DNA of 64,000 bases from Blastocatellia bacterium (GTDB lineage: Bacteria; Acidobacteriota; Blastocatellia; RBC074): NCBI GenBank assembly GCA_043783625.1, contig JAYVZE010000200.1:14097-78096 (forward strand). The letters run 5' to 3'. The notes under the pieces were generated by a model. The model did no database searches. It was not told where the DNA came from and saw nothing but the letters and a program-made list of their open reading frames with translations. How positions within the stretch are numbered: the stretch's first letter is position 1; each line of letters opens with the position of its first letter. Shown here piece by piece: positions 43,029-63,910 of the stretch. The translations under genes were made by a program, and so were the position numbers.

Positions 43029-43174
43029 ATTTTTGCTCCGAGAGTTTGAATAGATTGGCGGCGCATCCGCCTTGCCTACTAGCATAGAGCGAGCCATCGC
43101 CCACACCAACAAAGACTCTTTACCACGGAAAGATTCTCAGCACCAGAGATGTCAACGTCCTTACGAATGAAGTT

Positions 43175-45169: not shown

Positions 45170-45213
45170 AAGTATTTTCCTTGTGTGGGAAAGATCGGAA
45201 ATCTTTCCGTTTG

Positions 45214-45441
45214 TTATCGGTTGTGCCGTTGGGTCTTGGCGTAGACAAACACGCCCAAGAAGCCGCCCAAAAATCCACTTACCAAACCTGCAATTCCGTT
45301 ATTGATAGCATTAACAATTTCACTGGACGGCATCCCAATCAGAAAATATGTGACAACCGCGCTCATTAACGCGCCCGCCACCCCTCCAATCAAACCTTGT
45401 TTCAGACATTGCCCAATGGGTGACGATGTTGCGGTATTCAT
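45214..45441 (-). CDS. small glycine-zipper membrane protein (possibly GlsB/YeaQ/YmgE family)
   Basis: 75 aa, two Gly-rich transmembrane helices, 4 nt overlap with upstream gene. Confidence 0.4.
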   Translation of the reverse strand: MNTATSSPIGQCLKQGLIGGVAGALMSAVVTYFLIGMPSSEIVNAINNGIAGLVSGFLGGFLGVFVYAKTQRHNR

Positions 45442-46604
45442 TGGTTTGGCTCCATTCCTAAAATACGTTGTGCATTGCCGCCCAAAATCATCGCGCGATC
45501 CTTTTCGCTCAAAGTGTTCAGGCTTTCAATCAATTCGTGTACCTCGTAATCGCCCATATCAAATGCGTAATCGGTGCCGACGACGATTTGCGAAGCGCCG
45601 ACCTGGGCAATCAAATTGCGTAATTGGTCGGGCGAGTACACCAGCGAGTCGAAATAAATCTGCTTGAGATATTCGCTCGGTTTTTTCTGAATGCCACCAG
45701 CTTCGGGACGCACTTTGTAACCGTGATCGGAACGACCAATGTAGGCGGGCAAATAGCCGCCGCCGTGCGCCGCTACAATTTTGACGCCAGGGTTGCGATC
45801 AAGCACGCCGCCGAAAATCAGATTCGACAAAGCAATCGTAGTTTCCAGCGGTTGCCCGATCATATTCGCCAGATAGAACTGATTCACACGTTCGCCGAGC
45901 GAGGTGCCGAGCGGATGAATGAAGACGACGCAGCCAAGTTCATCTGCCTTCGCCCAGAATTTCTCAAATTTAGCATCCGCAAGATCAAGCCCATTGACCG
46001 CCGTAGAAATTTCTACACCTTTGAGTCCAAGCGTTTTGACGGCGTAACCAAGTTGCTCAACGGATAACTCAGGATGTTGCAAAGCAATCGTGCCAAGCCC
46101 TACAAAGCGTTCAGGATTCGTCGCGCAAGTAACGGCGACATGTTCATTTTGCACACGCACAATTTCTTTCGCCAAATCAGGTTCCGCCCAATAATAATAC
46201 TGGTTCGGCGAAGGACTGAGTACTTGCACGTCCACGCCCATTGCATCCATATCGCGCAGCCGCTCATCCAGATTCGTCATTTTGCGAAATGCTTCGGGTA
46301 GCATTTTTTGCACGTTGTGTTTCGCCGAATCTGCGCCTTGCGTACGCAACATCATTTCCGGCTCGCCTTTTTTTTGCGGGCAATCGGCGACGAGAGGCTC
46401 GACCGCAGGCGTGAGCAAATGCGCATGCAAATCTATGGTGAAGTGTTTGTGCGCACGGATTGTTTGCGTGTGCTTATCAGCGGAGCAATTAAAATCACAA
46501 GCATGTAAGGGCATAAAAAAATTGGGACTCACGTCTTTGCCGCACGGAAATTGTAGTGCCGAATCGCTCAGCCAAAGCACGGAACGACTCGGCACTACCG
46601 ACAT
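45438..46604 (-). CDS. amidohydrolase-2 family TIM-barrel hydrolase (candidate sugar lactonase, LigI/rhamnonolactonase-like)
   Basis: TIDLHAHLL metal-binding start, distal His and Asp ligands. Alternative ATG at 46514. Confidence 0.6.
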   Translation of the reverse strand: MSVVPSRSVLWLSDSALQFPCGKDVSPNFFMPLHACDFNCSADKHTQTIRAHKHFTIDLHAHLLTPAVEPLVADCPQKKGEPEMMLRTQGADSAKHNVQKMLPEAFRKMTNLDERLRDMDAMGVDVQVLSPSPNQYYYWAEPDLAKEIVRVQNEHVAVTCATNPERFVGLGTIALQHPELSVEQLGYAVKTLGLKGVEISTAVNGLDLADAKFEKFWAKADELGCVVFIHPLGTSLGERVNQFYLANMIGQPLETTIALSNLIFGGVLDRNPGVKIVAAHGGGYLPAYIGRSDHGYKVRPEAGGIQKKPSEYLKQIYFDSLVYSPDQLRNLIAQVGASQIVVGTDYAFDMGDYEVHELIESLNTLSEKDRAMILGGNAQRILGMEPNQ

Positions 46605-48163
46605 TACTTCAACTTCAGCCGTAGAATCGTCAATGAATGCGCCGGGAAGGTATAACTAAATCCGTTGTTCGCAATCGAAGCAGTCATCGTGCGCGTCACG
46701 GGTCTGATTTTTTTGTCATCGCCGAACGTGTGCGTAGCTTTCAGGTCAGGATGATTCATTTCCCACACGCCGACTTCGCTTTGCAAGCTGCCTTCCTGAT
46801 TATCAATGCGCGTAGTCAGGTCTTTGTCTTTGCTGCGATTCAGTACGTTGACGTAAACGGTTTTGTCATTCGCGTTGTAAGTCGTCGAAACATCCAGATA
46901 TTTCAGCGGCGCACGATTGCCGACTTTGTAAGTGGGTGCTGAGACATAAGCATCCACCGATTGATTACCTTTTTGTTTGGTGAATTCGACCAGCGGGAAA
47001 TAGATCGGTTGCAAAAACAGCCCTTGTTTATTGGTCGTGATCGGCGCGATGACGTTGACCATCTGGGCGATATTCGCCATTTTGACTACGTCGGCGCGGC
47101 GGAAGAACGAATTGAAAAACATCCCCATCGCCAGCGCGTCTTCAAAGTTGTAAGGCTCTTCGAGCTTCTTTTCGTTGAAGGCGCGATACCAGACGTTCCA
47201 TTCGTCGTAAGCAATAAAAATCGGACGGGGATTTTGCTGACGATTTTGCGCTTCCTTGATCTGGCTGGCCGTGACATTGATGTAATTATCAATCGTTTGT
47301 GAGTTCGCCATGAACTTCTCGAAATCGTTATCGCGGTTGTTGATGTAAGTATGCAGCGCGATGTAATCGGCCTGATTGCGCAACGTTTCGAGCACGGTGC
47401 GGTTCCAATGCATCCAGTCCGCCGTCGGTCCGTAATTACTCGATCCACTCGCAATCAACTTGATGCTGGGATCGGTTGAGCGCATGGCTTTGCCAGCTTC
47501 GAGCGCGAATTTGGAATACTCCTCAGCGCTCTTGTTGCCGAGTTGCCACGGGCCGTCAATCTCATTGCCGAGCGCCCAGAATTTCACCTTGTAAGGTTGC
47601 TCGCGGCCATTCTTGCGGCGTTGTTCGGCCCAGTAAGTATTTTTAGATTCGTTGCAATACTCGACCCAATGCCGCGCTTCATCAATCGTTCCCAGTCCAA
47701 GATTGACGCAGATGTAAGGCTCTGTGCCAATCGTCTCGCAATACTTCAAAAATTCATCGGTGCCAAAACGATTGCTTTCCAAATCGTCCCACGCCAGGTC
47801 TTTGCGCATCGGACGCTGATCTTTCGGTCCGATGCCGTCTTTCCAGTTATAACCCGAAGCGAAATTTCCGCCCGGCCAACGCAGGATCGAAACGTTGAGT
47901 TGCTTAACGACTTCCATCACGTCTTTGCGATAGCCGTCTTTGTCAGATAGCGGACTGCCTTCTTCATAAATGCCGCCGTAAATCATGCGCCCCAAATGCT
48001 CGGCGAAATTACCGAACAGCAGTTTGTCTACTTCGCCGATGGTTCGGTCAGTGTCTATTTTGATGCGGGCTTGCGGTGCTTGGCCTTGTGCAAAGACGAG
48101 GCTGTTGCACAGCAAACAAGCAGTGATGATGGTTGTGAGTAAGCGGGTGATTTTTAGTTGCAT
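46604..48163 (-). CDS. alpha-L-arabinofuranosidase, glycoside hydrolase family 51
   Basis: Signal peptide. [20 protein letters not shown] and [13 protein letters not shown] (catalytic acid/base Glu) motifs. 519 aa. Confidence 0.85.
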
Positions 48164-48181
48164 GAATTTTCTCCGGTTTAG

Positions 48182-48252
48182 GAACGCACGCTCCCTCGCG
48201 TGCCATCGTGGATTTCTTTCTGCTGAGACTGCACGCGGGGGCGCGTGCGTTT
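48182..48252. terminator. GC-rich compound hairpin (gcacgctccctcgcgtgc and cacgcgggggcgcgtg within outer IR gaacgcacgc / gcgtgcgttc)
   Basis: Read directly. Lies downstream of the esterase gene on the minus strand. Confidence 0.4.
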
Positions 48253-48256
48253 CGAG

Positions 48257-50196
<1,940 letters not shown>

Positions 50197-50218
50197 GAAT
50201 TTTTCTGCGTGAGTGAAA

Positions 50219-51736
50219 TTACGGTGTCTTGATCAACCAGCGTTGTTTCTCGCTCTTAGGATCGAATTTTGCGAGCGTAGCGAAACTGCTGCCCACTGCC
50301 GAAAGTGCCAGCGAATCTTTTGCGTTAGGAATCGCTTTGGGCATGATGCGCCAACTGCCATCGGCGAGCTGATCGAAACGCCAAAGCTGTTCAGGGCTTC
50401 CGGTAAAGGTTGGCAAGGCGATTAACTCGCCGCCTTCGGTCGCGGTCAGCGTTCGCGTAGTTCCGGCAATCGTGATTTTGAAATACGGCGCGCCAAGATA
50501 ACCGCCCGCGTTGGCGACTGGCTCAATCATCCATTTCTGTTGCGCCTGAAGCATGTAATTCCCCATGCGAACAGCAACGTCACCCGTCGGCCATTTTGTC
50601 GAAACTTCGGCGACATCTTGCGGCGGAATCGGTTTGCCCGTGCCGGCAAACATTCCACCGCCACCGCCGGGCGGCGGCCCAGCGTTAGTGCCGGGTGCGG
50701 GTGCGCCGCCTTGCGCTCCCGGTGGCGGGCCACGTCGCACCGGCCTGCCGCCGACAGGAAACCCTTCTACGGCAAGTTCAAGCGAAGTGCCGGTGCGCAC
50801 CGATTCAAACTGATAGGTGCCCGCCTGCAAATTCTCACCGGCAACCGGCCAGCCGTCTTTCCATTGCAACGGGCGAATGTCGAGCACGCTCGCTCCGCCT
50901 CGATCAAGGTCGGCTTCATAGTGCATTGAAAATTTCTGTACGCCATCGCCCAGATCGAATAATCCGAAATGACCAGGGCCAATCACGCGCCCAGATGACG
51001 TAACGAAAAGTTTGCCGCCGCCCTGAATCATGTCTACGCCCATGTTGTCTATGAAAGGGCCTGTGACTTTCTTGGCGCGACCGACGCGAATGTTATAGCC
51101 GGAATCTGCGCCGCGACAGCAACTGCCGTGCGTAACCAACAAGTAATACCAACCCTCGTGATAGATCATGATTGAGGCTTCACTGTTGATCGCAATGTTA
51201 CGCGGTTTTTCAAGTGGGTTGAGACGCTTGCCCGTTTTAGGATCAAGCTCTACCAACCGGATGGAACCGAAATAAGAACCATAAACGAGCCACAATTTTT
51301 TTGTCGTTGGATCAAGCAACACGCCCGGATCAATCGCGTTGCAATCTTCGACGCCGTCAGACGAAGCGACTACGCCACCCTCTTCCCATTTATAATCAGG
51401 CGAATTTGGGTCGAGCGTTTTGTTGGTGAGCAAATTGATGTCCGCTTTGGTGACTCCGCTATTGGCGGCGATATACAAAAAATATTTATCGCCGAGATGG
51501 ATAACATCAGGAGCCAATCCGCGTCGCGGCAGCCGCGTGCCTTGCCGCCACGTCCACCCGTCGTCAGAGACAAGCGCCGACCCACCCGTGCCGTAGGTGT
51601 AATACTTGCCATCGCAAAGAACGATGGTGGAAGGATCATGAATTCCGATTTGTCCATCCAACGCGATGGCACTCGAATTCTGAATGTAACCAGTTGCCAA
51701 CAGGAGCAAGGCGGCAGTCAAAAGATTTTTTTTCAT
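50219..51736 (-). CDS. secreted glycoside hydrolase family 43 (arabinanase/xylosidase five-bladed propeller) with Pro/Gly-rich linker and C-terminal beta-sandwich
   Basis: Signal peptide. IHDPSTIVLCDGKYYTYGTG catalytic Asp motif. PGG-rich linker near 50650..50790. Confidence 0.8.
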   Translation of the reverse strand: MKKNLLTAALLLLATGYIQNSSAIALDGQIGIHDPSTIVLCDGKYYTYGTGGSALVSDDGWTWRQGTRLPRRGLAPDVIHLGDKYFLYIAANSGVTKADINLLTNKTLDPNSPDYKWEEGGVVASSDGVEDCNAIDPGVLLDPTTKKLWLVYGSYFGSIRLVELDPKTGKRLNPLEKPRNIAINSEASIMIYHEGWYYLLVTHGSCCRGADSGYNIRVGRAKKVTGPFIDNMGVDMIQGGGKLFVTSSGRVIGPGHFGLFDLGDGVQKFSMHYEADLDRGGASVLDIRPLQWKDGWPVAGENLQAGTYQFESVRTGTSLELAVEGFPVGGRPVRRGPPPGAQGGAPAPGTNAGPPPGGGGGMFAGTGKPIPPQDVAEVSTKWPTGDVAVRMGNYMLQAQQKWMIEPVANAGGYLGAPYFKITIAGTTRTLTATEGGELIALPTFTGSPEQLWRFDQLADGSWRIMPKAIPNAKDSLALSAVGSSFATLAKFDPKSEKQRWLIKTP

Positions 51737-51786
51737 AGGGTTTTTAATCGAATAGCCATTGCAGTTACCGAAAGCTTGCAATGGCG

Positions 51787-52863
51787 TTACTTACAATTTT
51801 TATCGAAACAAAGATGCTTGCTGAAAAACGGCATCACAAAATTTTGAAAGCGCACAGCAACCGCGCTGGTATGCGTGCCTGAATAAATTTCAAAGCTATT
51901 CGCAATGCCGTATTTATCCATCGCATCGTGCAACTTACCGGAATCAACTTTTAGCCCGTCCTTGTCGCCGACATCAATTGAGATGGCACGATACATCCGC
52001 AAATTCGCAACGTATTGATCAAAGAAAGCCAGTGGCGAATTCGCCGCCCATTTCGCCAATATATCGGGTTGCACTTCGCCATTCTTTCTTGCCAGGTCGA
52101 GATAGAGCGGCGGATTTTTCGGATTCGGCGACCACGCCGCAGCCGCCGCAAGTTGCGCACGTGCGCCAAAGCCTAATTTCGCAGAATCTTCCGCCGTTTT
52201 CACTGCTTCAAGTGCTTTATCCATCTCTGCGTTCACGGGTCCCGCCTGGCGCGGAGACAAACAGCACGGACTCATGATGTACAAACTGCCGAACACATCG
52301 GCGTGCTTCATGCCGATGCGCGTTGCGCCGTATCCGCCCATCGAATGCCCTACTAGACCACGACTCAAGCGATTGGGCAACGTGCGATAATGCGCGTCAA
52401 TAAATGCCACAACATCACGCGCAATAAAATTCTCGAAATCGCCCGTTGTAGCCGAGCTTGAATACATTGATCCGTTGTGAACGGTCTTGGAATCAGGCAG
52501 CACGACGATCATCTCTTGTGCGCCTAACGCGAACGCGCCTTCGAGGGTTTGCGGCACGTGGATTTCTTTGCTCCATTGTTCAGCGCCGATGGAATATCCG
52601 TGCAGCGCATAAACCACTGGATAACGTCGTGATTTTTGTTTCTCATAACTCGGCGGCAAAAGTACGAGTACATCACGATCAACGGCGTCGCCTTCCAAAT
52701 TGCCTTCGAGCGTGACCCCGTGAATTTTGATGCGCTCAACTTTCGCGGGCTTTGCGCTCGCCACTATGGGAGGCACTTCGGTTTGCACTTGCGCGGCAAT
52801 CGGTAAGGCAACCGCCACAGCAAGTAACGACAAAATCAAAAATCGTAGCTTGTTAACCATCAT
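51787..52863 (-). CDS. secreted esterase, esterase D / CE1-like alpha/beta hydrolase
   Basis: Signal peptide. GHSMGG nucleophile elbow. Confidence 0.7.
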   Translation of the reverse strand: MMVNKLRFLILSLLAVAVALPIAAQVQTEVPPIVASAKPAKVERIKIHGVTLEGNLEGDAVDRDVLVLLPPSYEKQKSRRYPVVYALHGYSIGAEQWSKEIHVPQTLEGAFALGAQEMIVVLPDSKTVHNGSMYSSSATTGDFENFIARDVVAFIDAHYRTLPNRLSRGLVGHSMGGYGATRIGMKHADVFGSLYIMSPCCLSPRQAGPVNAEMDKALEAVKTAEDSAKLGFGARAQLAAAAAWSPNPKNPPLYLDLARKNGEVQPDILAKWAANSPLAFFDQYVANLRMYRAISIDVGDKDGLKVDSGKLHDAMDKYGIANSFEIYSGTHTSAVAVRFQNFVMPFFSKHLCFDKNCK

Positions 52864-52945: not shown

Positions 52946-53926
52946 TTATTGCTCGTAACCAACGCGCTGTTCAATTGCGCCGAAAATCGAATAACCGTCG
53001 TTATCGAAAACTTCCATACGCACCGTATCGCCAAATCGCATGAAACCAGTTTTGCTTGCACCTTCGTCCAGCATTTCAATCACACGGCGTTCGCTGATGC
53101 AGGCGGAACCTGCGCTGCGATCTGCGTTAGAAACAGTACCGGAGCCGATGATTGTGCCAGCTCGCAAACGTCTGGTTTTCGCGGCGTGTGCGATCAATTC
53201 GTAAAAACCAAAATTCATTTCGCTACCGTTCGGATGTCCGAACCACGCGCCGTTCCATAGAATATTCAGCGGTAAATGCACGCGCCCATCACGCCACGCA
53301 TCACCGAGTTCGTCAGGTGTAATCGCCACCGGAGCGAATGCTGTTGCAGGCTTCGCGTGAAAAAACCCGAAGCCCGTTTTCATTTCGCGCGGGCCAAAAC
53401 CGCGCAAACTCCAGTCATTGATTTGCACAATTAATTTTATGTGTGATGGAGCTTCTTCCGGCGTACATCCCATTGGCACATCGTCCACGATCACGCCGTA
53501 TTCGCCTTCAAAATCAATGCCGTGTTCTTCGCTCAAAAATGGTGCATCATCACACGCACCGAGGAAGTCGTCCGACCCGCCTTGATACATCAACGGGATC
53601 GTCTCGAAATCCGCCATCGGCGGCGTATTGAAAGCTTTTTCCATCAGTCGCCCATGATTCAAAAATGCCGAGCCGTCGCACCATTGATAAGCACGGGGCA
53701 ACGGCGCAGCCACAGTTTTGGCTTCGAACGTAAAAGAGTCTTTCACCGTTCCAGCCCTGAGTTCAGCCGCCAGCATTTGCAATTGTGGTGCTGTCTTCGC
53801 CCAATCATCAAGCGCGTCTTGCATCGTCGAAGCAATTGTTTGCGCAGAAACAGCACGATTTAAATCATTGGCGACCACGATCAATGCGCCATCACGTGTT
53901 CCATTTTTAAGCGTGGCAAGTTTCAT
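52946..53926 (-). CDS. fumarylacetoacetate hydrolase (FAH) family protein (candidate 2-keto-3-deoxy-sugar-acid dehydratase)
   Basis: 326 aa. FAH-fold metal-binding Glu/Asp pattern in C-terminal half. Confidence 0.65.
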   Translation of the reverse strand: MKLATLKNGTRDGALIVVANDLNRAVSAQTIASTMQDALDDWAKTAPQLQMLAAELRAGTVKDSFTFEAKTVAAPLPRAYQWCDGSAFLNHGRLMEKAFNTPPMADFETIPLMYQGGSDDFLGACDDAPFLSEEHGIDFEGEYGVIVDDVPMGCTPEEAPSHIKLIVQINDWSLRGFGPREMKTGFGFFHAKPATAFAPVAITPDELGDAWRDGRVHLPLNILWNGAWFGHPNGSEMNFGFYELIAHAAKTRRLRAGTIIGSGTVSNADRSAGSACISERRVIEMLDEGASKTGFMRFGDTVRMEVFDNDGYSIFGAIEQRVGYEQ

Positions 53927-53929
53927 AAA

Positions 53930-55336
53930 TTACGAGCGAACGTATTCAAATTCAAACGGCTGATGATTGACACCGACTTTCGGCGGCGCGATCCAGTTGG
54001 CAATTTTTCCAACTTCAGTCACAGGAGTCATCAGGCTTTGCACATATTCGCGGTCTGCTAACATCGGCAGCCATTCACTCGAACGTCGCACAAATTCTTC
54101 TGCCGAAAGCGGCACACCTTGCACATCAAAATTGTATCCGGCATACGCTCCAACATGGCGATGGAAGCGGCGGCTCGGTAAATACAGGCGTTCGGCGATG
54201 TCTTCGTCAGCTAAGATTTTATTCCAGCGCAGCAATCCGCGCTCGCAATCTTTGCCGTATTCATTGCGCAGAACTTCATTCAACGCATTGCGCAGTGGCA
54301 CTTCTTTGAATTGCAGGCGATTCTCTTCCAGCACTTCAATGCTGTAACTGCCTTCCGCCACGATGTGATCTTCGTAGCGTTTTTGTTCTTCGTAGCGACC
54401 TTTCAAACCCGCCGCAAAAAAATCCGCTGAGTTGGAACTAATCTCGCCACCAAACAAATCAAGCGAATAGCTGTACCAGTAATTGATGTATTTCTGAATA
54501 ATCTCAAGCGGAATGCCGCCGCGTGCTTTCACCTCTTCATTGGGGCTTTCTTTCATCAACTGTGCGGTGCGTTTGACCACACGACCGATGCCCGTTTCAC
54601 CAACAAACAAATGATGCGCCTCTTCGGTCAGCATAAAACGACAAGTGCGTTGCAACGGCTCAAAGCCTGATTCAGCCAGTGCCGCCAACTGATATTTGCC
54701 GTCGCGGTCGGTGAACATCGCGAACGCGAAAAAGTTCAGCCAGTCGTCGCACGGTTGATTGAAGGCTTGCAGGATGCGCGGCTTGTCAGCATCACCGCTG
54801 CGGCGTTGCAATAACTCATCAGCTTCTTCGCGTCCGTCGCGTCCGAAATAACCGTGCAGCAAATAGACCATCGCCCATAAATGACGACCTTCTTCGACGT
54901 TGACTTGAAATAAATTTCTGAGGTCATAGAGCGATGGACAAGTCTTGCCGAGTTGTCGTTGTTGCTCTACAGAAGCAGGTTCGGTGTCGCCTTGCGTGAC
55001 AATGATGCGGCGTAGCGAGTTGCGAAATTCGCCCGGCACTTCCTGATAAACCGGCTTGCCGTAATTATCGCCAAAGCCGATAGTCGCGCCCTGCTGCGCC
55101 GGAGTCAGAAAAATTCCCCAGCGATAATCGGGCATTTTCACATAATCAAAATGTGCCCAGCCCGAAGGTTCTACGCTGATGGCAGTACGCAAATACACAT
55201 CTTTTTGCTGAAAACCATCCGGCCCCATTTCGTTCCACCAGCTCAAATAATTGGGCAGCCATTTTTCCAGCGCACGTTGCAAACGCACGTCATCGGCGAG
55301 ATTTACATTGTTAGGAATGCGGTCGTAAAGGCTCAT
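53930..55336 (-). CDS. boxB: benzoyl-CoA 2,3-epoxidase, diiron oxygenase component BoxB
   Basis: About 468 aa from MSLYDRIPNNVNLADDVRLQRALEKW. Diiron ligand motifs EEGRHLW and LTEEAHH. Adjacent to boxC. Confidence 0.7.
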   Translation of the reverse strand: MSLYDRIPNNVNLADDVRLQRALEKWLPNYLSWWNEMGPDGFQQKDVYLRTAISVEPSGWAHFDYVKMPDYRWGIFLTPAQQGATIGFGDNYGKPVYQEVPGEFRNSLRRIIVTQGDTEPASVEQQRQLGKTCPSLYDLRNLFQVNVEEGRHLWAMVYLLHGYFGRDGREEADELLQRRSGDADKPRILQAFNQPCDDWLNFFAFAMFTDRDGKYQLAALAESGFEPLQRTCRFMLTEEAHHLFVGETGIGRVVKRTAQLMKESPNEEVKARGGIPLEIIQKYINYWYSYSLDLFGGEISSNSADFFAAGLKGRYEEQKRYEDHIVAEGSYSIEVLEENRLQFKEVPLRNALNEVLRNEYGKDCERGLLRWNKILADEDIAERLYLPSRRFHRHVGAYAGYNFDVQGVPLSAEEFVRRSSEWLPMLADREYVQSLMTPVTEVGKIANWIAPPKVGVNHQPFEFEYVRS

Positions 55337-55339
55337 AGT

Positions 55340-55456
55340 GATTGCGGAGTGCGGATTTGGGATTGCGGGTTCAAGAATTGGACTTACAAAAATTTTTCTC
55401 CAATATTTGCGGAGCACAGTTTTTTTACCGCAACCCACAATCCCAAATCCGCAATC
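55340..55456. promoter_or_regulatory. 32 nt imperfect inverted repeat containing doubled GATTGCGG half-sites, in the boxC-boxB intergenic spacer
   Basis: Arm gattgcggagtgcggatttgggattgcgggtt at 55340..55371 pairs with accgcaacccacaatcccaaatccgcaatc at 55427..55456. Extra ttgcggag copy in spacer. Confidence 0.5.
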
Positions 55457-55458
55457 AA

Positions 55459-57081
55459 TTAAGTGCGTTTGTAATCAAATTTCGCCTGCGTCGGTTTGCC
55501 GTAATTGGTCAGTGCACCATTTTCGCCAACGGCGTTGGGGCGTTGAAAAATCCAGTTTTGCCACGCGGTCAATCGTCCGAAAATTTTTGTGTCGTGCGTC
55601 TCTGCTCCGGCAAAACGTAAGTTCGCTTCCATCCCTGTCAGCGCGTCGGGCGAAAGCGCAGTGCGCTCTTCAATCGCCAAACGGATTTCATCATCCCAAT
55701 CCAGATCGTCAGGCGCAGTGGTAATCAAACCCGCTTCATCAGCGGCTTCGGTGTCAAAGCGTGCGGTTTGCAAGACGGCTTCGACTTGTTCGGATTGCGC
55801 GAGGAAGCGCGATTGCAAGCGCGTCAAACCGTTACTCATCGGCAACGCTCCGGCGTTCAGCTCACTCGTAGCAATTTCAACCGGATGCGATGCATCGTTG
55901 AGCATGTAAGTGCGATCAGCCGCAAGCGCGAGTTCAAGCAAGCAGCCCGCAAAACAACTGCCGGGTTCGATCAGCGCGAAGAAACTCTTCGCCGTCAGGT
56001 CAAGCCGCCGCAACGTCCGCGCCATAAATAAAAGCGTTTCACGCACCAGCCAATGTTCACGCTGTTCGGTCAAGACGCGATCCACTGCCAGCACATTTTC
56101 AGCATTGCCTGTCGTTCGCAAAATCAGCAAACCGATTTCGGGTTCGTTGGCGCGTAAGTGCAACAGCGCGTTATCAAGGTCACGGAACGCGGCGAGCGGC
56201 CACCATGCATCACCAAGTTTTTGAATTTCATTCGCGTCAGTTGGTTGCGTATCTTCCGGCGCACGTAACGTCAATTCGGCATAACGCTTGTCCCGATGCA
56301 TACGCAAACTGACGTGATGGTATTCGCGTGCGTTGTCACTGCTTTCAATTTGCAACGGATGCAGTTTGATTCCTTGCAGCGATTCGCTTGTCGCCGCCAG
56401 TTCACGCGCTCGTGCCGTAATCGCTTCATCAAATTTTGTTGTCGGAAAATAATCGTCAATTAATCCCCATTCTTTCGCACGTTTGGCTTTGAAGCCTTCC
56501 GCTAACGTAGAAAAAATGTCCGCACGGTCACGGCGAATTTTGCGTTTGTCTACTAATCGCGTCAGCCCGCCCGTTCCCGGCAACACGCCGAGCAGTGGCA
56601 CTTCAGGTAATGAAACTGCGGCGTTGCCATCATCCACCAGATAAATTTCTTCGCACGCAATTGCCAGTTCATAACCGCCGCCCGAAGCCGTGCCGTTCAG
56701 CGCGGCGATGTATCGCTGCCCCGAATTGCGCGAAGCGTCTTCAATGCCGCAGCGCGTTTCGTTCGTAAATTTACAGAAATTGACTTTGTGCGCGTGCGAC
56801 GAAGTGCCAAGCATGTATATGTTTGCACCTGCGCAAAAGATGCGCGGTTTCAAACTCGTGACAATGACGACGCACACTGACGGATGCTCAAAGCGTAGTC
56901 GTTCGACAGCATCGGCGAGTTCAATGTCTACGCCAAGATCGTAAGAATTCAGCTTTAATTTATAGCCCTCAAACAGCGTCGCATCTTCATTCACATCCAT
57001 CGTCAACGTAGCGATTGCGCCATCAACGCTGAGCCTCCAATGCCGATAGAGTTCGGGAGAAGTTTCAAAATCAATATGCAT
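55459..57081 (-). CDS. boxC: 2,3-epoxybenzoyl-CoA dihydrolase (benzoyl-CoA-dihydrodiol lyase) BoxC, crotonase superfamily
   Basis: 540 aa. N-terminal MHIDFETSPELYRHWRLSVDG. Two enoyl-CoA hydratase-like domains. Confidence 0.7.
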   Translation of the reverse strand: MHIDFETSPELYRHWRLSVDGAIATLTMDVNEDATLFEGYKLKLNSYDLGVDIELADAVERLRFEHPSVCVVIVTSLKPRIFCAGANIYMLGTSSHAHKVNFCKFTNETRCGIEDASRNSGQRYIAALNGTASGGGYELAIACEEIYLVDDGNAAVSLPEVPLLGVLPGTGGLTRLVDKRKIRRDRADIFSTLAEGFKAKRAKEWGLIDDYFPTTKFDEAITARARELAATSESLQGIKLHPLQIESSDNAREYHHVSLRMHRDKRYAELTLRAPEDTQPTDANEIQKLGDAWWPLAAFRDLDNALLHLRANEPEIGLLILRTTGNAENVLAVDRVLTEQREHWLVRETLLFMARTLRRLDLTAKSFFALIEPGSCFAGCLLELALAADRTYMLNDASHPVEIATSELNAGALPMSNGLTRLQSRFLAQSEQVEAVLQTARFDTEAADEAGLITTAPDDLDWDDEIRLAIEERTALSPDALTGMEANLRFAGAETHDTKIFGRLTAWQNWIFQRPNAVGENGALTNYGKPTQAKFDYKRT

Positions 57082-57106
57082 ATTTCTTCACTGGGCGCGT
57101 CTTTTA

Positions 57107-57210
57107 CTGGGAGTGCCCGCATCCTGCGGGCGAATCCGTACTCAGGGAAACCTTTTTATCGCAGGTAGTTGCTCGCCACGGCTTCGCCCGCAGGATGCGG
57201 GCGCTCCCAG
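57107..57210. repeat. inverted pair of GCAGGATGC hairpin motifs (ctgggagtgcccgcatcctgcgggcg / cgcccgcaggatgcgggcgctcccag)
   Basis: Exact reverse-complement arms with 53 nt spacer between ligase and boxC genes. Confidence 0.65.
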
Positions 57211-57212
57211 TA

Positions 57213-58706
57213 TTATTCTCGTAACTTGAATCGTTGAATTTTGCCGCTCGCGGTTTTCGGCAATTTATTCACAAAATCAATCAGGTGCGGATACTGAAAG
57301 CGTTGTAACCGCGCTTTGCACCATTGCTGCAATTCGTTTTTCAGTACAGGCGTTTCTGCATTATGCAAAATAATCACAGCGCGAATCCGCAGCACGCCAT
57401 CAACGTTGACACCAACCACAGCGGCTTCATTGACTGCCGCGTGTTCGAGCAAAACATTTTCCATTTCAATCGGCGAAACCCATTCGCCGCCAACTTTGAG
57501 CATGTCGTCGGCGCGACCTTCATACCAATAAAAGCCCTCTGCATCGCAGCGATAACGATCTCCTGTGACCATCCATTCGCCTTGCATCGTGCGGCGTGTC
57601 TTCTCACGGTTGCGCCAATAATACGCCGCCGCGCTTGCGCCCTTAACCAGCAAATGTCCCGTCTCGCCAATAACGACAAGGCTTCCGTTGTCATCTATAA
57701 TTTTTAATTCGTAACCCGGTACGGCTTTGCCGCTCGATCCCGGCTGACATTCTGCCGTCGTATTCGAGCAGAAAATATGCAGCATTTCAGTCGAACCAAT
57801 ACCATCCAAAATTTCTAAGTCGTAGGTTTCTTTCCACCGCCGCCACGTCTCAGGCGCGAGCGGTTCGGCAGCAGAGATACAGCGACGCACCGAAGACAAA
57901 TCGCCTTTTCCGCCCTCATTCAAAATTGCGTTGTAAAGCGTCGGCACCAAACATAACACCGTCGGGCGATAGCGTTCGATTGCTTCGAGAATACCACGCG
58001 GCGCAACTCGTCCGGGCAACAGCACCGTAGCCGCTCCAATACTGAACGGGAAGCTTAGCGCGTTACCAATTCCGTAAGCGTGAAACAACACGCGCCCCAA
58101 CACAATGTCGTTTTCATCCAATGCCAGCACGTGTTTGCTGTAGGTCTCACACGTCGCCGGAATCGCGCCGTGCAAATGGACTACACCTTTGGGATTGCCG
58201 GTCGAGCCGGAACTATAAAGCCAAAACGCCATGTCATCGCGGTGCGTGTTGGCGGGAGAAATTTCTGTGGGATAGGCTTTGAGTAATTCGTTCAAATCTT
58301 CGGCGACGATCACGTGAACGGCTTCGCCATAACCAACTAACGCTTCGTTTAATTTCTCAGCATTTGCGGCATCAACAATCACCACGCAGGCTTCGCTGTC
58401 TTCCAGAAAAAAACGGTAATCGCTGACTTTATACAAAGGATTCACTGGCACAGGAACCGCACCAATGCGCATCGCGCCAAAAAAAGAAATTGGAAAAGCA
58501 GGCGTGTCGCCCAGAATCAGCAACACACGATTTTCACGCGCTACGCCAAGTGCTTGCAGTGCGCCTGCCATGGCACAAACACGCCGGAACAATTCGTCAT
58601 AGCTGATTTTTTCATCGCCAAAATAGATGGCGGTACGCGCACCGCGTCCTGCCGCCAAATTGTCGTCAATCAATGTACTCGCGTTGTGTCGCGCTGTGAA
58701 CATCAT
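57213..58706 (-). CDS. benzoate-CoA ligase family (AMP-binding adenylate-forming enzyme)
   Basis: SSGSTGNPKG P-loop-like AMP motif, TGD motif, about 497 aa from MMFTARH. ATGA overlap with upstream esterase stop. Confidence 0.7.
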   Translation of the reverse strand: MMFTARHNASTLIDDNLAAGRGARTAIYFGDEKISYDELFRRVCAMAGALQALGVARENRVLLILGDTPAFPISFFGAMRIGAVPVPVNPLYKVSDYRFFLEDSEACVVIVDAANAEKLNEALVGYGEAVHVIVAEDLNELLKAYPTEISPANTHRDDMAFWLYSSGSTGNPKGVVHLHGAIPATCETYSKHVLALDENDIVLGRVLFHAYGIGNALSFPFSIGAATVLLPGRVAPRGILEAIERYRPTVLCLVPTLYNAILNEGGKGDLSSVRRCISAAEPLAPETWRRWKETYDLEILDGIGSTEMLHIFCSNTTAECQPGSSGKAVPGYELKIIDDNGSLVVIGETGHLLVKGASAAAYYWRNREKTRRTMQGEWMVTGDRYRCDAEGFYWYEGRADDMLKVGGEWVSPIEMENVLLEHAAVNEAAVVGVNVDGVLRIRAVIILHNAETPVLKNELQQWCKARLQRFQYPHLIDFVNKLPKTASGKIQRFKLRE

Positions 58707-59638
58707 TTTGCGCTTGGAGCTTTCAGGAGTCCTTGAATGTTCAGCCATTCGCCAAACCGCTCAACCCAACTATCCACTGGCCAGCCGCGATTGGTCAGTC
58801 CGAAACCGTGGCCGCCTTTTGAATAAATGTGTAATTCGGCAGGGCGTTTGGCGGCTTTCCATTCGAGATAAAGTTTGGCGCTGCTCCCGGAAAATGTTTG
58901 GTCATCATCGGCGACCGCGATGAAGAGCGGCGGCGCGTCAGCCACGACGGGCAAGCCGCTCGTGCTGCCGCCATAAATCGGCGCAGCGAAATTCGGACGG
59001 CTGTCGGCGTCGTGTTGCATGACGACACTCATCGTCAACATGCCTCCTGCCGAGAATCCCATCAGTCCAATGCGATCAGGCGCGATGCCCCATTCGACGG
59101 CGCGTTGCCGCACGAGCTTGACGGCTTGTCTGCCATCCGCTGTTGCAAATTCAGCGGCCTTTTGCTGTGCCGGATTCAACACGGGTGCAGCCGCAGGCGT
59201 AGTTGGCGGTTGCGGCGTGCGCGCCCTGTTCGCCGCCGCTAGTTTTTGGTAGTCCTCTTCGCTGCCGGTATCCGCCACGCGGTACTTGAGTACGAAAGCC
59301 GCGACGCCACGCGCTTGTAACCAGCGGGCTACGTTATGGCCTTCTTTCTCGATGGCGAGATGCACAAAAGCCCCGCCAGGTGCAACGATAATCGCTGTGC
59401 CGTTCGCCTTATCACGTTCCGGCAAATACGCCGTCAACGTCGGCTGCGTCACATTGCGGATGCGCGTTTGTTTGTCAGGATTAACAAACGTGACTTCCTT
59501 TTGTTGCGCATTTTCAGAACCGGGTGCGATGCCGGAATACAAGGGAATCACGGGCTGTTGCGCACGAACGCTGGCGGACGCGCACAACAACAAGGCTGCG
59601 ATGCGGCAGGCTGTTTTAGAGAAATTGATTCTTGTCAC
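58703..59638 (-). CDS. secreted alpha/beta-hydrolase esterase with Pro/Thr-rich insertion
   Basis: Signal peptide. GFSAGG nucleophile elbow. Confidence 0.65.
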   Translation of the reverse strand: MTRINFSKTACRIAALLLCASASVRAQQPVIPLYSGIAPGSENAQQKEVTFVNPDKQTRIRNVTQPTLTAYLPERDKANGTAIIVAPGGAFVHLAIEKEGHNVARWLQARGVAAFVLKYRVADTGSEEDYQKLAAANRARTPQPPTTPAAAPVLNPAQQKAAEFATADGRQAVKLVRQRAVEWGIAPDRIGLMGFSAGGMLTMSVVMQHDADSRPNFAAPIYGGSTSGLPVVADAPPLFIAVADDDQTFSGSSAKLYLEWKAAKRPAELHIYSKGGHGFGLTNRGWPVDSWVERFGEWLNIQGLLKAPSAK

Positions 59639-59660
59639 AAGTCTCCTTATTCTTTTAGTT

Positions 59661-60752
59661 CTATTTGCCTAGATGTTGATGGAAGAAGCGAGCGACCTCT
59701 TGCCAGATTTCAACGGACTCCGGGGCTTGATAAAGACCCACGTAAAGCGAGTGAGACATCGCTTCAAAAACGTGAAGCTGTGCCGCTACTCCCGCCTGAC
59801 GTAATTTGCGATGGATGCGCACAGTGTCACTGAGAAAAATATCCCGAGTACCGGAAATCAGAATCGTGGGTGGTAATCCTTTCAGGTCTCCGTATATCGG
59901 AGAAATCAAGGGGTTCTTCAAATCTTCCGTCCCCGCATAGACCTGAGCCGCCAAAGGAAGAAATCCGTCAGGCGTTGGAAGTGCGTTGTCAATGTACTCA
60001 TTCGTGCGCAAACTATCGCTCGCCAGCGTCAAATCAACCCAGGGTGTCCCGCTAAAGATCGCGCCGGGTAAGGGCAGTTTCAGTGCCTTCAGCTTCAGCG
60101 CCGTCGCAATAGATAATCCCCCGCCACAAGAGCTGCCGCCAATTCCGATGTTGGCAGGTTTGTACTGCCTCATGACTTCCTTTATTACGGTGACAGTGTC
60201 ATCCAAAGCTGCGGGGAACGGATGTTCGGGAGCCAAGCGAAAGTCTACTGAGATAACCTTCATTTTCGTGTGAGCAGCAAGCAAGATGCCTTCCGAGATA
60301 CCAGTTCCGCCGCCGGAGAAAACATAACCACCTCCATGCAAATGGATGAGAACTCTGTTCCGATTCTCGGATGGAATCTGGTCAGGGGTTATCGTGTGAA
60401 TCTTCACTCCAGCCATGACACCAGGTTCAATTTTTCCCTGAAAGGTTTCGCTGATCGCTCTTACCAATCGCAACGCCCCAGCCGCCCTGGCCGAACGAGA
60501 GGCTTCCCATTCTTCCTTGCTCCTGGGAGTTGTAGAGCGAAAGAAGTTCAGCGCAGGTTCAATGGATGCCTCGATTGATTTTTGCAATTCAGGGCTGGGG
60601 TTGAGTGGCACCGGAATGCGGTGCGCCGGGATTTGGCGATCTGGCGGCTTGCCTGCATCCTGCGCTGCTTGTGAATAAGCGGCACTAGTGGGTAACCAGA
60701 TAAGCACAACCAGAAACATCAGATGGCTTCGATAGTTTATTTCGCTTCTCAT
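59661..60752 (-). CDS. secreted alpha/beta hydrolase fold-3 esterase/lipase (HSL-like)
   Basis: HGGGY oxyanion motif, GGSSCGG nucleophile region. Alternative start at 60719. Confidence 0.65.
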   Translation of the reverse strand: MRSEINYRSHLMFLVVLIWLPTSAAYSQAAQDAGKPPDRQIPAHRIPVPLNPSPELQKSIEASIEPALNFFRSTTPRSKEEWEASRSARAAGALRLVRAISETFQGKIEPGVMAGVKIHTITPDQIPSENRNRVLIHLHGGGYVFSGGGTGISEGILLAAHTKMKVISVDFRLAPEHPFPAALDDTVTVIKEVMRQYKPANIGIGGSSCGGGLSIATALKLKALKLPLPGAIFSGTPWVDLTLASDSLRTNEYIDNALPTPDGFLPLAAQVYAGTEDLKNPLISPIYGDLKGLPPTILISGTRDIFLSDTVRIHRKLRQAGVAAQLHVFEAMSHSLYVGLYQAPESVEIWQEVARFFHQHLGK

Positions 60753-60782
60753 AAATTATGACCCCTTGACTGCCCCAACTCG

Positions 60783-60813
60783 TTATAAAAATCCAAGTCC
60801 CATTCGATGTCAC
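60783..60813. repeat. 31 nt direct repeat copy B (ttataaaaatccaagtcccattcgatgtcac), matching 63927..63958
   Basis: 26/31 identity with copy A. Overlaps the last codons of the GH106-like gene. Minus-strand translation gives ..DIEWDLDFYNELG, echoing the C-terminus of the gene at the window end. Confidence 0.55.
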
Positions 60814-63800
60814 TTGCCTGTCTTTTGCCAAACAATTGCTTGCACGTATGGCGTCAGCACAACCGGCCCAACTAAGCCGTAGGGCTGCACGATTCCTCGC
60901 TTGGCGACATCATCGTCCAGCTTCACCAAACGATTATTCAACGTCGTGGCGACGCGCACCGCGATGGTGTTACGACCAGGTTTGAGATACGCGCCGATGT
61001 CGCCCGCCGCGCTGAGTTGGTCAATGCTGACGGGCTTGTCATTCACGGTGACAGTAAAAGTATCAAAGACTTCGCCAAGACTTAATCGTGCGCCATGCGC
61101 CTTCGTCCAATTGGACGGCAGCTCAATACTCGTAGTGTAAACACCGATGCCCGAAGTATTTTGCAGCACCGGAATTTCAGGCCACGCTTTGAGTTCTTTC
61201 AGATCAAGTTCGCTTTGTGTTTTGCGGGTTTCCACCGCTGCGGCTCCGAATGTCGTCGCGTAGGGATTCGCGGGCTGCCAGTCTTCTACTTTCAGACTCC
61301 AATTCGCTTTGGTTAAGTCTAATGCGGCGGGTGCGGCAGCGATGGTGCTGCGAACGGTGCGACCATTGCTAAGCGTTGTGCTGTATGTTCCTGATTTTGC
61401 CGCGCGGATTACAATTGAGTTTCCTTCTACGACCGCTTCGTCGGCGGTGGTTTGAGTGACGTGCAGCGCAGGAGCCGCGCCGCCAAAGCGATTGGGTTGC
61501 TCACTTAACGCAATCAACATGCCATTATCCCGCGATAACCGCAGGCGAAATGTGATGCGGTCGCCGCTGGTTTTGTAATTCGCAATCGGCGTAATTTTTC
61601 CTGACCACGCATCCAGCAGGTAAGGCTGTCCTCGCCCTTCCAAACTTACCTCGCGCTCCACGGGTTGTCCCGCAGCAGGCTCAAACAGTGTGGTCGGTTC
61701 GTCCGGCGGACTCATAATTCCCTGATTGTAGAAAAAGTAATAATCCGTTTTGGTGGCGTCGTCGCGCCGACGAAGGCTGAGCAATGAAGAGGGAGAAGCA
61801 GGTTCTGCTGCGGGGCGAACGCCCAATGCGCGCAATTTTTCTGGCACGTCGGATTCGTGCGCTGCGCGTGATACCGAACGCTCCGCCAGCAATTCGTCGA
61901 TCACAGATTTCAACGTCGCATCAGCTTCCGGCTTGTTGCCGGGCGTACGATCCGGCGGGGTTCCAATCACAATAATAGGCAGTCCCGCGCGTGCAAATCC
62001 AAGAATCTTGCGTGCGATTTCAATCGGCATTGCCGTCTTGACTGGATCAGTTGGGGGACCTTGTTCGCTATCAAGAATCAACGCTTTGTATGCAGGGCCA
62101 TTTGCTGCAAGACGTTTTCCGGTAACGGTGGCATTCGGCAAATTCAACATGTTCGGATTGAGGTAATCCCGCGTGTAACCCGCCTCTTGCAGTTTCGCAT
62201 CACCCCAATGCCGAAACTTCATGCTTTGCGATGGAGGGTAAAGATAATTCTGCATGTACACCGCTACATCGGTTTTTGCGTCTCCCTGCGTGAGGACTTG
62301 TTGGTTGCGAGCGAAATAATCGTTGTACGTGCGAGCGTCTATCCAAAACGGATTGCGTGGCCCCCACGCATTGGAAAACCCCGCTGCGCCAAAATTGTGA
62401 TAGCCCGGCCATTTCCACGTCGCGCCATCGCGGTACGGATAGACGTGATAGACAAGCTTCGTGATACCGCCGCCGAAACTGCGGTGCATCTTAATCACAG
62501 CATCCTGAAAAGTCTGTGCATTATTACGATTAAGCGTGGGGCAACATTCAGTCGAATACCAAGAATTTCCGGTCATGTGATTTGCCGAAGCCATTGGCAA
62601 GTAATTGTCAATTTCATCACCTACAAACAACGATTCATATTCAGGGCGATCAACCGCCGCCGTAGCTTGCACCATATCCGTGATCGGAATTGTCAGATTG
62701 GCTTCGCCTTCCACTTGCACGCGCAAAACGTTGTTGTACTTGCGAGCCCATTGCCGCAGCGGAGCGATTTGTTTTTCCAGCCAGATGTCGCCACGCACAG
62801 CATAAAAATCTTCGCGCACGCGCGGCGCACTGCCATCATTGAAATCGAAAATTTCGCGGAACAACGCAGGCAAATTTGGCATCAGCGGATAGTGGCGACG
62901 GCTACTGAATTCCTCCGCCATTTTGTTCGTCCAGAGTTCATCGGGGCTACCGCGATCTACGGAATGTGAATCAATAAAAATGTCTCCGCCATTTGCTTTC
63001 AAAAGCACCTTTACTTCCGGGCTTAACTCGCGTTCCAACCCGTTAATTAGCTCGGCATAGCCTTCTTCGCTGAACGGATCAGGCTGCGCAAAAACGCCGC
63101 GTGACCAGAAACCGATAACCATCCATTGCGCACCCGCCGGAGTCGTTGGGGCAGCCCACTGCAATTCGCCAGCCGTTGTTGCTCCCAATACGCCATCCTG
63201 ATTTTTCCCCGTGACTATCGCTGTCAAATCAATCACCGAAGAGCGATCCAGTTGCACTGACCCTGTCGCCTGACACGGCGTTTGTACGCAGCGATACGCC
63301 AGCACCGCAATAAGATTGGCGCGTTTTGCCTGCGGCCCTCGCCCTGCACCAGGCGGCGGCCCCGTCGGAGCGGCAGCCCCACGCGGCGGAGCAACTCCGA
63401 ACCCGCTACGGCTGCCTTGTGTTTGTGTAGGTGGCGGAACTGCGCCTTGAAATGTAGCTCCGGCGTTAACTGCAACTTTACCAACGAACAAAGATTTTCT
63501 TGCATGGTCAGCATCTATCGAATAGCCCACCGGATTTACAGTCGGCCCATGACTAAGGCTGACTTTCACGCCAAGCTGATTCGCAGCGGTCAGCAACGCG
63601 ACGAGTTGATCGTTGTTCGGATATGCGCCTTGCCCGATTTCTATACCAGCGATTCCGCTTTCGTGAAGTTGCCGTACAGTGTTTTTGATTTCCGCCGGAT
63701 CTGCTGTCGCGGGCATATTCATCCGCACCCACGGCAAATCTACGGCAGGCGGATGCGCGAATGTCGCCGCAGTAAGCGGAGTCACTGGATTAAACTTGCG

Positions 63801-63899
63801 CCATTCAGTGCGTAGCGTTTGAGCCACGTTGCCATTTTGGGCAGTCACAGAAAAGACGATCAGCAGGATGCTGGTCATAACAAGAAACGATTTCTTCAT
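60810..63899 (-). CDS. secreted large glycoside hydrolase, GH106-like (putative alpha-L-rhamnosidase), paralog of 15873..19217
   Basis: Signal peptide and N-terminal PWVRMNMP...EIKNTVRQLHESGIAGIEIGQG motif paralogous to the WWHWMNGN...MKRVGIGG motif of the other copy. 1029 aa. Contains GA-rich low-complexity insertion. Confidence 0.5.
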   Translation of the reverse strand: MKKSFLVMTSILLIVFSVTAQNGNVAQTLRTEWRKFNPVTPLTAATFAHPPAVDLPWVRMNMPATADPAEIKNTVRQLHESGIAGIEIGQGAYPNNDQLVALLTAANQLGVKVSLSHGPTVNPVGYSIDADHARKSLFVGKVAVNAGATFQGAVPPPTQTQGSRSGFGVAPPRGAAAPTGPPPGAGRGPQAKRANLIAVLAYRCVQTPCQATGSVQLDRSSVIDLTAIVTGKNQDGVLGATTAGELQWAAPTTPAGAQWMVIGFWSRGVFAQPDPFSEEGYAELINGLERELSPEVKVLLKANGGDIFIDSHSVDRGSPDELWTNKMAEEFSSRRHYPLMPNLPALFREIFDFNDGSAPRVREDFYAVRGDIWLEKQIAPLRQWARKYNNVLRVQVEGEANLTIPITDMVQATAAVDRPEYESLFVGDEIDNYLPMASANHMTGNSWYSTECCPTLNRNNAQTFQDAVIKMHRSFGGGITKLVYHVYPYRDGATWKWPGYHNFGAAGFSNAWGPRNPFWIDARTYNDYFARNQQVLTQGDAKTDVAVYMQNYLYPPSQSMKFRHWGDAKLQEAGYTRDYLNPNMLNLPNATVTGKRLAANGPAYKALILDSEQGPPTDPVKTAMPIEIARKILGFARAGLPIIVIGTPPDRTPGNKPEADATLKSVIDELLAERSVSRAAHESDVPEKLRALGVRPAAEPASPSSLLSLRRRDDATKTDYYFFYNQGIMSPPDEPTTLFEPAAGQPVEREVSLEGRGQPYLLDAWSGKITPIANYKTSGDRITFRLRLSRDNGMLIALSEQPNRFGGAAPALHVTQTTADEAVVEGNSIVIRAAKSGTYSTTLSNGRTVRSTIAAAPAALDLTKANWSLKVEDWQPANPYATTFGAAAVETRKTQSELDLKELKAWPEIPVLQNTSGIGVYTTSIELPSNWTKAHGARLSLGEVFDTFTVTVNDKPVSIDQLSAAGDIGAYLKPGRNTIAVRVATTLNNRLVKLDDDVAKRGIVQPYGLVGPVVLTPYVQAIVWQKTGK

Positions 63900-63910
63900 A
63901 GCTATTCCTA

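Follow-up and report, generated by a model that had tools for sequence, protein, structure and literature searches.

A putative esterase-ligase-boxC-boxB cassette of the aerobic benzoyl-CoA pathway without a linked boxA in Blastocatellia

To our knowledge, nearly all characterisation of the box pathway for aerobic degradation of benzoyl-CoA comes from Proteobacteria, in which BoxA, a reductase with two [4Fe-4S] clusters and an FNR-like domain, is regarded both as an indispensable subunit and as a marker gene. The conversion of benzoyl-CoA by this pathway requires NADPH and O2. The clusters of Aromatoleum (Azoarcus) evansii and Paraburkholderia xenovorans comprise boxABC, bclA, boxD, and boxR. 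BoxB is monomeric and specific for benzoyl-CoA; BoxC co-purifies with it, and BoxA contacts BoxB only transiently, with small amounts being sufficient (PMC4498308). The PaaABCE phenylacetyl-CoA epoxidase resembles this system in combining a CoA thioester substrate, a diiron epoxidase, and hydrolytic ring opening, but differs in subunit make-up, type of reductase (PaaE, class IA), and the substrate itself. Here we describe a box locus of a Blastocatellia bacterium, a member of a class reported from soil metagenomes. It is located on the minus strand at positions 52946-60752 of a 64,000-nucleotide stretch of contig JAYVZE010000200.1 (assembly GCA_043783625.1), which is referred to as the window.

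The open reading frame (ORF) listing of the locus shows six minus-strand ORFs in the order esterase, esterase, benzoate-CoA ligase, BoxC, BoxB, and FAH-family protein. This order had been proposed in an initial annotation made from the sequence alone; its coordinates proved exact, and its family assignments are backed by Pfam and NCBIfam scores. BoxB, BoxC, and the ligase match their counterparts in A. evansii and P. xenovorans, whereas the locus differs from those clusters because boxA, boxD, and boxR are missing in and near it, because a predicted secreted esterase leads, and because an array for plant-glycan degradation, rich in glycoside hydrolases, surrounds it; in addition, the host is acidobacterial, not proteobacterial. 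The window enzymes belong to the box pathway, but the gene arrangement departs from the canonical box cluster; the locus represents a variant of a known pathway rather than a new kind of system. The four genes at its core and the two hairpins between them are as follows.

58703..59638, minus strand: BD-FAE/PaeX/AxeA1-like esterase, predicted secreted, gene 1 of the conserved four-gene cassette (PF07859, PF20434, DLH)
57213..58706, minus strand: benzoate-CoA ligase family protein, 497 aa from the ATG at 58706, within ORF 57213-58748 (TIGR02262, 2V7B)
57105..57212, minus strand: near-perfect hairpin of 108 nt, REP/MITE-like, filling the ligase-boxC spacer (RNA fold)
55459..57081, minus strand: BoxC, predicted 2,3-epoxybenzoyl-CoA dihydrolase (TIGR03222, 2W3P)
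55347..55456, minus strand: hairpin in the boxC-boxB spacer (RNA fold)
53930..55336, minus strand: BoxB, predicted diiron benzoyl-CoA 2,3-epoxidase, 468 aa from the conserved start, within ORF 53930-55438 (TIGR03225, 3PER)

BoxB scored 739.7 bits against the equivalog model TIGR03225 (cut-off, 499.1) and 604 bits, at about 60% identity, against the crystallised A. evansii enzyme (3PER), and BoxC scored 832.1 bits against the equivalog model TIGR03222 (cut-off, 712.3) and 662.6 bits against BoxC of Burkholderia xenovorans (2W3P). For BoxB, the diiron ligands and the benzoyl-orienting residues have been listed (PMC5489048). In the alignment with 3PER, the ligands E120, E150, H153, D211, E240, and H243 and the benzoyl-pocket residues Q116, T119, S123, F193, F203, F206, and T210 are all identical. 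Judged by homology, the two proteins are true orthologues of the pathway enzymes. Pfam matches alone, being weak and generic (PaaA_PaaC with 26 bits, below its cut-off; ECH_1), would also suit other diiron or crotonase enzymes, such as PaaA-like proteins or generic enoyl-CoA hydratases, that do not act on benzoyl-CoA. This alternative, for which the initial annotation had left room, has a negligible probability and is refuted by the wide margins over the equivalog cut-offs, by the scores of 604 and 663 bits to the solved BoxB and BoxC, and by the unbroken identity of ligands and pocket. The conserved start of BoxB, MSLYDRIPNN, is located at 55336; the ORF adds a GTG-started extension of 34 codons (GTG at 55438), which is shared by no relative and is probably untranslated.

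The ligase scored 519.8 bits against TIGR02262 (cut-off, 375.25), a model at subfamily level, which includes ligases for hydroxy- and aminobenzoate as well. Its best match in the PDB was the benzoate-CoA ligase 2V7B of B. xenovorans (403 bits), followed by an anthranilate-CoA ligase. The overlap of ligase start and esterase stop that had been annotated initially could be read directly on the minus strand: at the ATGA junction (58706-58703), the esterase stop codon TGA (58705-58703) overlaps the in-frame ATG of the ligase (58706-58704), and independent gene calls return the 497-aa product from this ATG.

The same arrangement was found in two further loci. In L004, whose BoxB is 83% identical to that of the window, the genes esterase-ligase-boxC-boxB are joined by ATGA at both the esterase/ligase and the ligase/boxC junction and are flanked by a PSD1 gene and a DUF1501 gene. 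L091 (GCA_016196035.1, JACPYM010000111.1), which was found with an esterase search, possesses the same four genes with the same two overlaps, its proteins being 87% (BoxB), 85.5% (BoxC), 78% (ligase), and 79% (esterase) identical to those of the window. Over both loci, cassette proteins are 76-87% identical to the window proteins, with 79-85% for the esterases encoded directly ahead of the ligase and sharing the ATGA overlap, and the flanks differ. Since three lineages with unrelated flanks share this block, the predicted secreted esterase, ligase, BoxC, and BoxB appear to be encoded by a conserved, translationally coupled cassette, which is reported here as new; our literature search returned no description of this arrangement, nor of BoxA-less or acidobacterial box clusters. 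The second, HSL-type esterase (59661-60752) has no counterpart upstream of the cassette in L004 or L091. By this comparison, the HSL-type esterase, the FAH protein, and the glycosidases are neighbours and not conserved parts of the cassette. The genetic link of esterases to the CoA-dependent pathway, as initially annotated, is supported for the ligase-proximal esterase, whose ATGA-linked block recurs in L004 and L091, but not for the HSL-type esterase and the FAH protein, which are located outside the conserved block.

Mycetohabitans rhizoxinica (pBRH01) shares with the window the order boxC-boxB and an alpha/beta hydrolase gene adjoining that of the benzoate-CoA ligase, but its boxA follows boxB, in the slot occupied by the FAH gene in the window, and a helix-turn-helix regulator precedes boxC. 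Its hydrolase gene is located downstream of the ligase gene, and the product gave no BLAST match to the window esterase.

The absence of BoxA from the window, as initially annotated, was borne out by three approaches. Pfam scans detected neither a Fer4-plus-FNR protein nor an aldehyde dehydrogenase among the large ORFs of the 64-kb window; tblastn with BoxA from the annotated boxC-boxB-boxA locus of M. rhizoxinica had no match in the window, nor in 82 related loci; and an Fe-S/FNR motif scan gave no genuine hit, either in the window or in 1.24 Mb of boxB-flanking DNA from 80 Blastocatellia species. As a positive control, the same motif scan flagged BoxA in the Mycetohabitans locus (L083). An 87-aa ORF with a CxxCxxCxxxC motif in L007 was discarded as an Fe-S candidate, being a low-complexity artefact. 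To the upstream side, two Logan contigs that are 100% identical to window positions 57184-64000 run 5.6 kb past the window end; a boxA just outside the window, a possibility raised by the initial annotation, was not found in these 5.6 kb. Leftward, the NDH-2 gene led no farther than a contig of 2.4 kb.

For the relatives, one genome per species was scanned, giving 80 loci, all from metagenome-assembled genomes of Blastocatellia/Pyrinomonadaceae. None of the 80 has boxA within ±10 kb of boxB; the missing linkage is therefore shared across the class Blastocatellia rather than peculiar to this locus. As for BoxD, no aldehyde-dehydrogenase domain was present in the scanned window ORFs or in the conserved neighbours of boxCB. 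A BoxR/BzdR-type regulator is likewise not found in the window; a LysR gene is located 5 kb upstream, and a BoxR/BzdR-family regulator was seen only in L094, near a pair of esterase and FAH genes.

The BoxB proteins of the 80 loci are 74-86% identical to that of the window, and about 75 of them keep boxC next to boxB in this order, a constancy of pairing that the co-purification of BoxC with BoxB (PMC4498308) fits. The usual context is boxC-boxB-tetR, followed by genes for ECH, ECH, SDR, RidA, ECH, an acyl-CoA dehydrogenase, and a salicylyl-CoA-5-hydroxylase-like flavoprotein. A typical example is L038 (11532-19064), which about 50-65 loci resemble and which contains no ligase, boxA, or boxD; its terminal 375-aa flavoprotein scored 506 bits against the bifunctional salicylyl-CoA 5-hydroxylase, of which it corresponds to the N-terminal half. 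Such a Pyrinomonadaceae locus agrees with the window in its class, in the boxC-boxB pair (74-79% identity), and in the absence of boxA, but it lacks ligase, esterase, and glycosidases and instead carries TetR and beta-oxidation-like genes. In the BoxB tree, the window groups with L003, L004, L005, L011, and L020 in a separate clade basal to the large Pyrinomonadaceae clade. Within this clade, L011 encodes, divergently upstream of boxC (5128-8076), a 982-aa molybdoenzyme of the xanthine dehydrogenase family with fused 2Fe-2S domains, which from its sequence may be 4-hydroxybenzoyl-CoA-reductase-like; downstream follow a GH51 gene and a gene for a fused BD-FAE/TIM-barrel protein. FAD_binding_3 proteins encoded near boxB were considered as a shared alternative reductase. 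This idea was rejected because the proteins belong to different subfamilies, i.e., PRK06847-type in the window, PobA in L091, and salicylyl-CoA-5-hydroxylase-like in Pyrinomonadaceae; those of the window and of Pyrinomonadaceae are only 23% identical.

With moderate confidence, we propose that in this basal Blastocatellia lineage the four-gene cassette would encode a relay from ester cleavage to ring opening, with BoxB being reduced from elsewhere. The exported BD-FAE/PaeX-like esterase would act outside the cytoplasm, cleaving an ester to liberate a benzoate-type acid, and the acid would be taken up and, going by homology, thioesterified by the ligase. BoxB would then epoxidise benzoyl-CoA at C2-C3, as its orthology, metal ligands, and substrate pocket suggest, and BoxC would by orthology catalyse hydrolytic ring opening to 3,4-dehydroadipyl-CoA semialdehyde and formate, a chemistry that is well established for this enzyme. 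Since boxA and boxD are not present in the locus and no boxA is linked to boxB in any of the Blastocatellia loci examined, the reductant of BoxB would be encoded elsewhere; as its source, a ferredoxin/reductase other than BoxA is slightly favoured over an unlinked boxA. Hydroxycinnamates, whose esters had been named initially as a possible feed, are unlikely to be direct substrates, because the pocket of BoxB is a benzoyl pocket.

Several observations, which concern in turn the electron donor, the esterase, and the transcript, weigh against this proposal. The negative results for boxA cover the window, the 5.6-kb extension, and the ±10-kb loci, and boxA may be encoded elsewhere in the genome. 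Full-length BoxA or BoxA-like proteins are encoded on three replicons, one of Rhizobium leguminosarum and two of Cupriavidus (NZ_CP030763.1, NZ_CP073678.1, NC_015727.1), none of which gave a BoxB match. Box clusters that are incomplete or split have been reported for Paraburkholderia and Cupriavidus (PMC10803450), and several divergent, full-length BoxA-like proteins form metagenome clusters without taxonomy. All this favours a strong rival explanation, according to which the pathway is fully canonical, with boxA and boxD elsewhere in the genome and only the gene order unlike that of Proteobacteria. This rival is opposed by the absence of boxA within ±10 kb of boxB in every one of the 80 species and by the distribution of BoxA itself, every organism-named BoxA among the 240 homologues listed being proteobacterial. 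Searches started from the Mycetohabitans protein and from a profile built on seven divergent BoxA-like proteins returned mainly Betaproteobacteria. A representative search gave 254 clusters at E ≤ 1e-30, without taxonomy. A divergent BoxA-like reductase, P0149, which is 41% identical to BoxA, is encoded directly after the alpha subunit of a Rieske ring-hydroxylating oxygenase (L085 6585-9200), so that BoxA-type reductases seem to serve oxygenases other than BoxB; together with the Rhizobium and Cupriavidus replicons, it indicates that BoxA-type genes can be unlinked or serve other oxygenases. Another divergent BoxA-like protein, P0145, was found on a 2-kb contig.

Also opposed to an unlinked boxA is the 11.85-Mb replicon of Nonomuraea gerenzanensis, which carries boxB and boxC but does not appear in the set of 12 records that gave a full-length BoxA match; BoxA-less boxB/boxC genomes therefore exist. 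Nonomuraea resembles the window in having boxB and boxC without boxA, there across the entire replicon, but differs in its gene order (boxB-paaX-like-boxC), its PaaX-type regulator, its actinomycete host, and the absence of any coupling to an esterase. On this evidence, the fully canonical pathway with unlinked boxA is a serious contender, although not what we expect. A bolder claim would be that Blastocatellia, and probably some actinomycetes, epoxidise benzoyl-CoA without any BoxA, using a generic or unrecognised ferredoxin/reductase, and that one lineage has added an exported esterase, forming a dedicated system that would release benzoate or p-hydroxybenzoate from esters in plant polymers or metabolites and consume the acid via the CoA-epoxide route; in this full form, we regard it as doubtful.

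Regarding the esterase, both window esterases exceeded the gathering scores of PF07859 and PF20434 (BD-FAE), with PF07859 scoring higher in both cases; for PF20434, the scores were 37.2 bits (58703-59638) and 34.2 bits (59661-60752) at a cut-off of 26.8. BD-FAE is a bifunctional feruloyl/acetyl xylan esterase of a Bacteroidetes polysaccharide utilisation locus (PMC8165983). The window esterases resemble it in passing the PF20434 threshold and in being encoded among glycan-degrading genes, but the matches are modest (34-37 bits), and one of them differs in being translationally coupled to an aromatic-acid CoA ligase. The HSL-type esterase scored 296.6 bits against NF058649, which is under the cut-off of 380, and the ligase-proximal esterase gave partial, sub-threshold matches to PaeX, AxeA1, and lp_1002 and PDB matches to 7DWC and 6A6O. 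As both look most like carbohydrate acetyl/feruloyl esterases (PaeX, AxeA1, BD-FAE) at the sequence level, the release of benzoate-type acids by the window esterase is a step that we infer.

The family of the ligase-proximal esterase has its best-known substrates among the acetyl and feruloyl esters of carbohydrates, and orthologues of this enzyme in L090, L092, and L093 are not encoded beside box genes; including that of L094, orthologues outside box loci are 76-79% identical to the window protein. These facts lend weight to the view that the esterases and glycosidases act only on acetylated or feruloylated pectin and arabinan, that ligase, BoxC, and BoxB degrade free benzoate, and that the two sets are neighbours owing to a mobile-module insertion or to loose co-regulation, without any relay. 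The wholly different flanks of the cassette in the window, L004, and L091 and the non-glycan context of most Blastocatellia boxCB pairs, with tetR and beta-oxidation-like genes, point in the same direction. Such a view, however, has to accommodate a 4-nt esterase/ligase overlap that was kept in three lineages at 76-85% esterase identity, and the recurrence of aromatic-acid genes by the esterase, i.e., pobA, a tannase gene, and a BoxR-like regulator. We consider it plausible but the less probable course. Specifically, the cassette of L091 is preceded by genes for a tannase-family protein, GH3, a MetE-like methyltransferase, a 612-aa AMP-binding protein, and DUF3237 (L091 1-14223) and directly followed by a gene for 4-hydroxybenzoate 3-monooxygenase (PobA; TIGR02360, 547.6 bits at a cut-off of 538.7), surroundings that hint at the metabolism of hydroxybenzoate or benzoate esters.

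The orthologues outside box loci have neighbours of their own. In L090, these are orthologues of the window genes for cytochrome c, PQQ dehydrogenase, and cupin (window 36780-43112 and L090 8133-13022, 61-80% identical), which suggests a conserved periplasmic oxidation module tied to the esterase; in L092 and L093, they are a carboxylesterase and a PQQ-cytochrome fusion. In L094 (1710-8909), the esterase gene is directly followed by a frameshifted orthologue of the window FAH gene (81-89% identity) with no box genes between them, and the nearby BoxR/BzdR-family regulator (HTH_3 plus a shikimate-kinase-like domain) scored 253 bits against a cut-off of 204. The FAH protein may be an older partner of the esterase.

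With respect to the transcript, the 108-nt hairpin at 57105-57212, which fills the 131-nt spacer between ligase and boxC, has a minimum free energy (MFE) of -79.5 kcal/mol as RNA (z = -9.6) and could terminate or process the transcript at this point, a further argument against the proposed relay. Its core palindrome CGCCCGCAGGATGCGGGC occurs exactly twice there, and relatives with three mismatches, GCCAGCAGGATGCTGGC, are located in intergenic positions at 1896-1913 and 6209-6226 of the window. An IS200/Y1-transposase-like ORF of 169 aa (12975-13484), taken with these palindrome relatives, suggests that the hairpin belongs to a REP/RAYT-type repeat system. The hairpin is missing in L004 and L091, where the ATGA overlap is found instead, and both Logan assemblies break inside it. 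The hairpin in the boxC-boxB spacer (55347-55456) has an MFE of -50.7 kcal/mol (z = -6.3). It was rejected as a specific regulatory element, as control spacers are often strongly structured too: values of z < -4 relative to shuffles were obtained for 64% of the boxC-boxB spacers and for 42% of control same-strand spacers (L003-L082). The structured Blastocatellia spacers are not conserved in sequence between species and are probably REP-like elements rather than specific regulators. A consensus scan of 45-64 kb gave 5 promoter-like sites (15 expected) and 35 terminator-like sites (30.5 expected). A single transcript across the six genes is plausible.

Insertion of a repeat-like hairpin between ligase and boxC, as well as the frameshift in the FAH orthologue of L094, might also be read as decay, the module then being a non-functional remnant that has lost boxA and boxD. 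With intact ORFs, BoxB 74-87% identical across more than 80 species, catalytic residues kept, and translational coupling conserved, this explanation is very improbable.

The cassette is located within a long run of pectin/arabinan glycosidase and esterase genes on the same strand, whose members adjoining the cassette are as follows.

60810..63899, minus strand: GH106-like glycosidase heading the same-strand string (PF17132, 83 bits, plus a rhamnosidase jelly-roll domain)
59661..60752, minus strand: HSL-type (GTSAG-like) alpha/beta-hydrolase esterase with a signal-peptide-like N-terminus (PF07859, 154 bits; PF20434)
52946..53926, minus strand: FAH-family protein of the 3LZK type, 3 nt past boxB (PF18288 plus PF01557)
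43175..52863, minus strand: downstream context, in order, PF00756 esterase, GH43 arabinanase, 240-aa protein, PF00756 esterase, GH51 arabinofuranosidase, Amidohydro_2 protein, and GH3

From 33.4 kb to past the 64-kb mark, all the genes share a single strand and are separated by short spacers, with the ligase-boxC and boxC-boxB spacers as exceptions; from the HSL-type esterase to FAH, the spacers measure 22, -4, 131, about 122, and 3 nt. The downstream order is repeated in the independent Logan contigs L001 and L002. Read by eye, the N-termini of the two esterases and of the flanking glycosidases are signal-peptide-like, e.g., MTRINFSKTACRIAALLLCASASVRA/QQP, whereas those of ligase, BoxC, BoxB, and FAH do not have this appearance. 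The FAH protein matches PF01557 (104 bits) and PF18288 (101.9 bits), i.e., the catalytic domain and N-terminal domain 2, and its closest relative of solved structure is 3LZK, itself an uncharacterised member of the FAH family (354 bits); the NCBIfam search gave no functional assignment at the equivalog level. The 5.6-kb upstream extension (L089 1-5679) encodes LysR, a 122-aa protein, a 422-aa PF00756 esterase, an FAH protein, a PemK toxin-antitoxin pair, and an extradiol-dioxygenase-like protein of two domains. The 122-aa sequence is found again at the C-terminal end of the neighbouring esterase of 422 aa, and the FAH protein (325 aa) is LRA6/HpaG-like and unrelated to that of the window. Farther away, window positions 6369-19217 hold an L-rhamnose utilisation set with an FGGY kinase, a RhaA-like isomerase, an aldolase-SDR fusion, a full GH106 rhamnosidase (1134 bits), and a TonB-dependent receptor of the Acidobacteria type.

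If BoxB and BoxC indeed operate without BoxA in these bacteria, surveys that require boxA would miss Blastocatellia and undercount aerobic benzoyl-CoA degraders, and the question of which protein naturally donates electrons to BoxB would be opened to testing. The esterase-ligase coupling suggests that esterified plant aromatic acids may pass directly into central metabolism, and it would be relevant to soil carbon turnover and to the discovery of new esterases.

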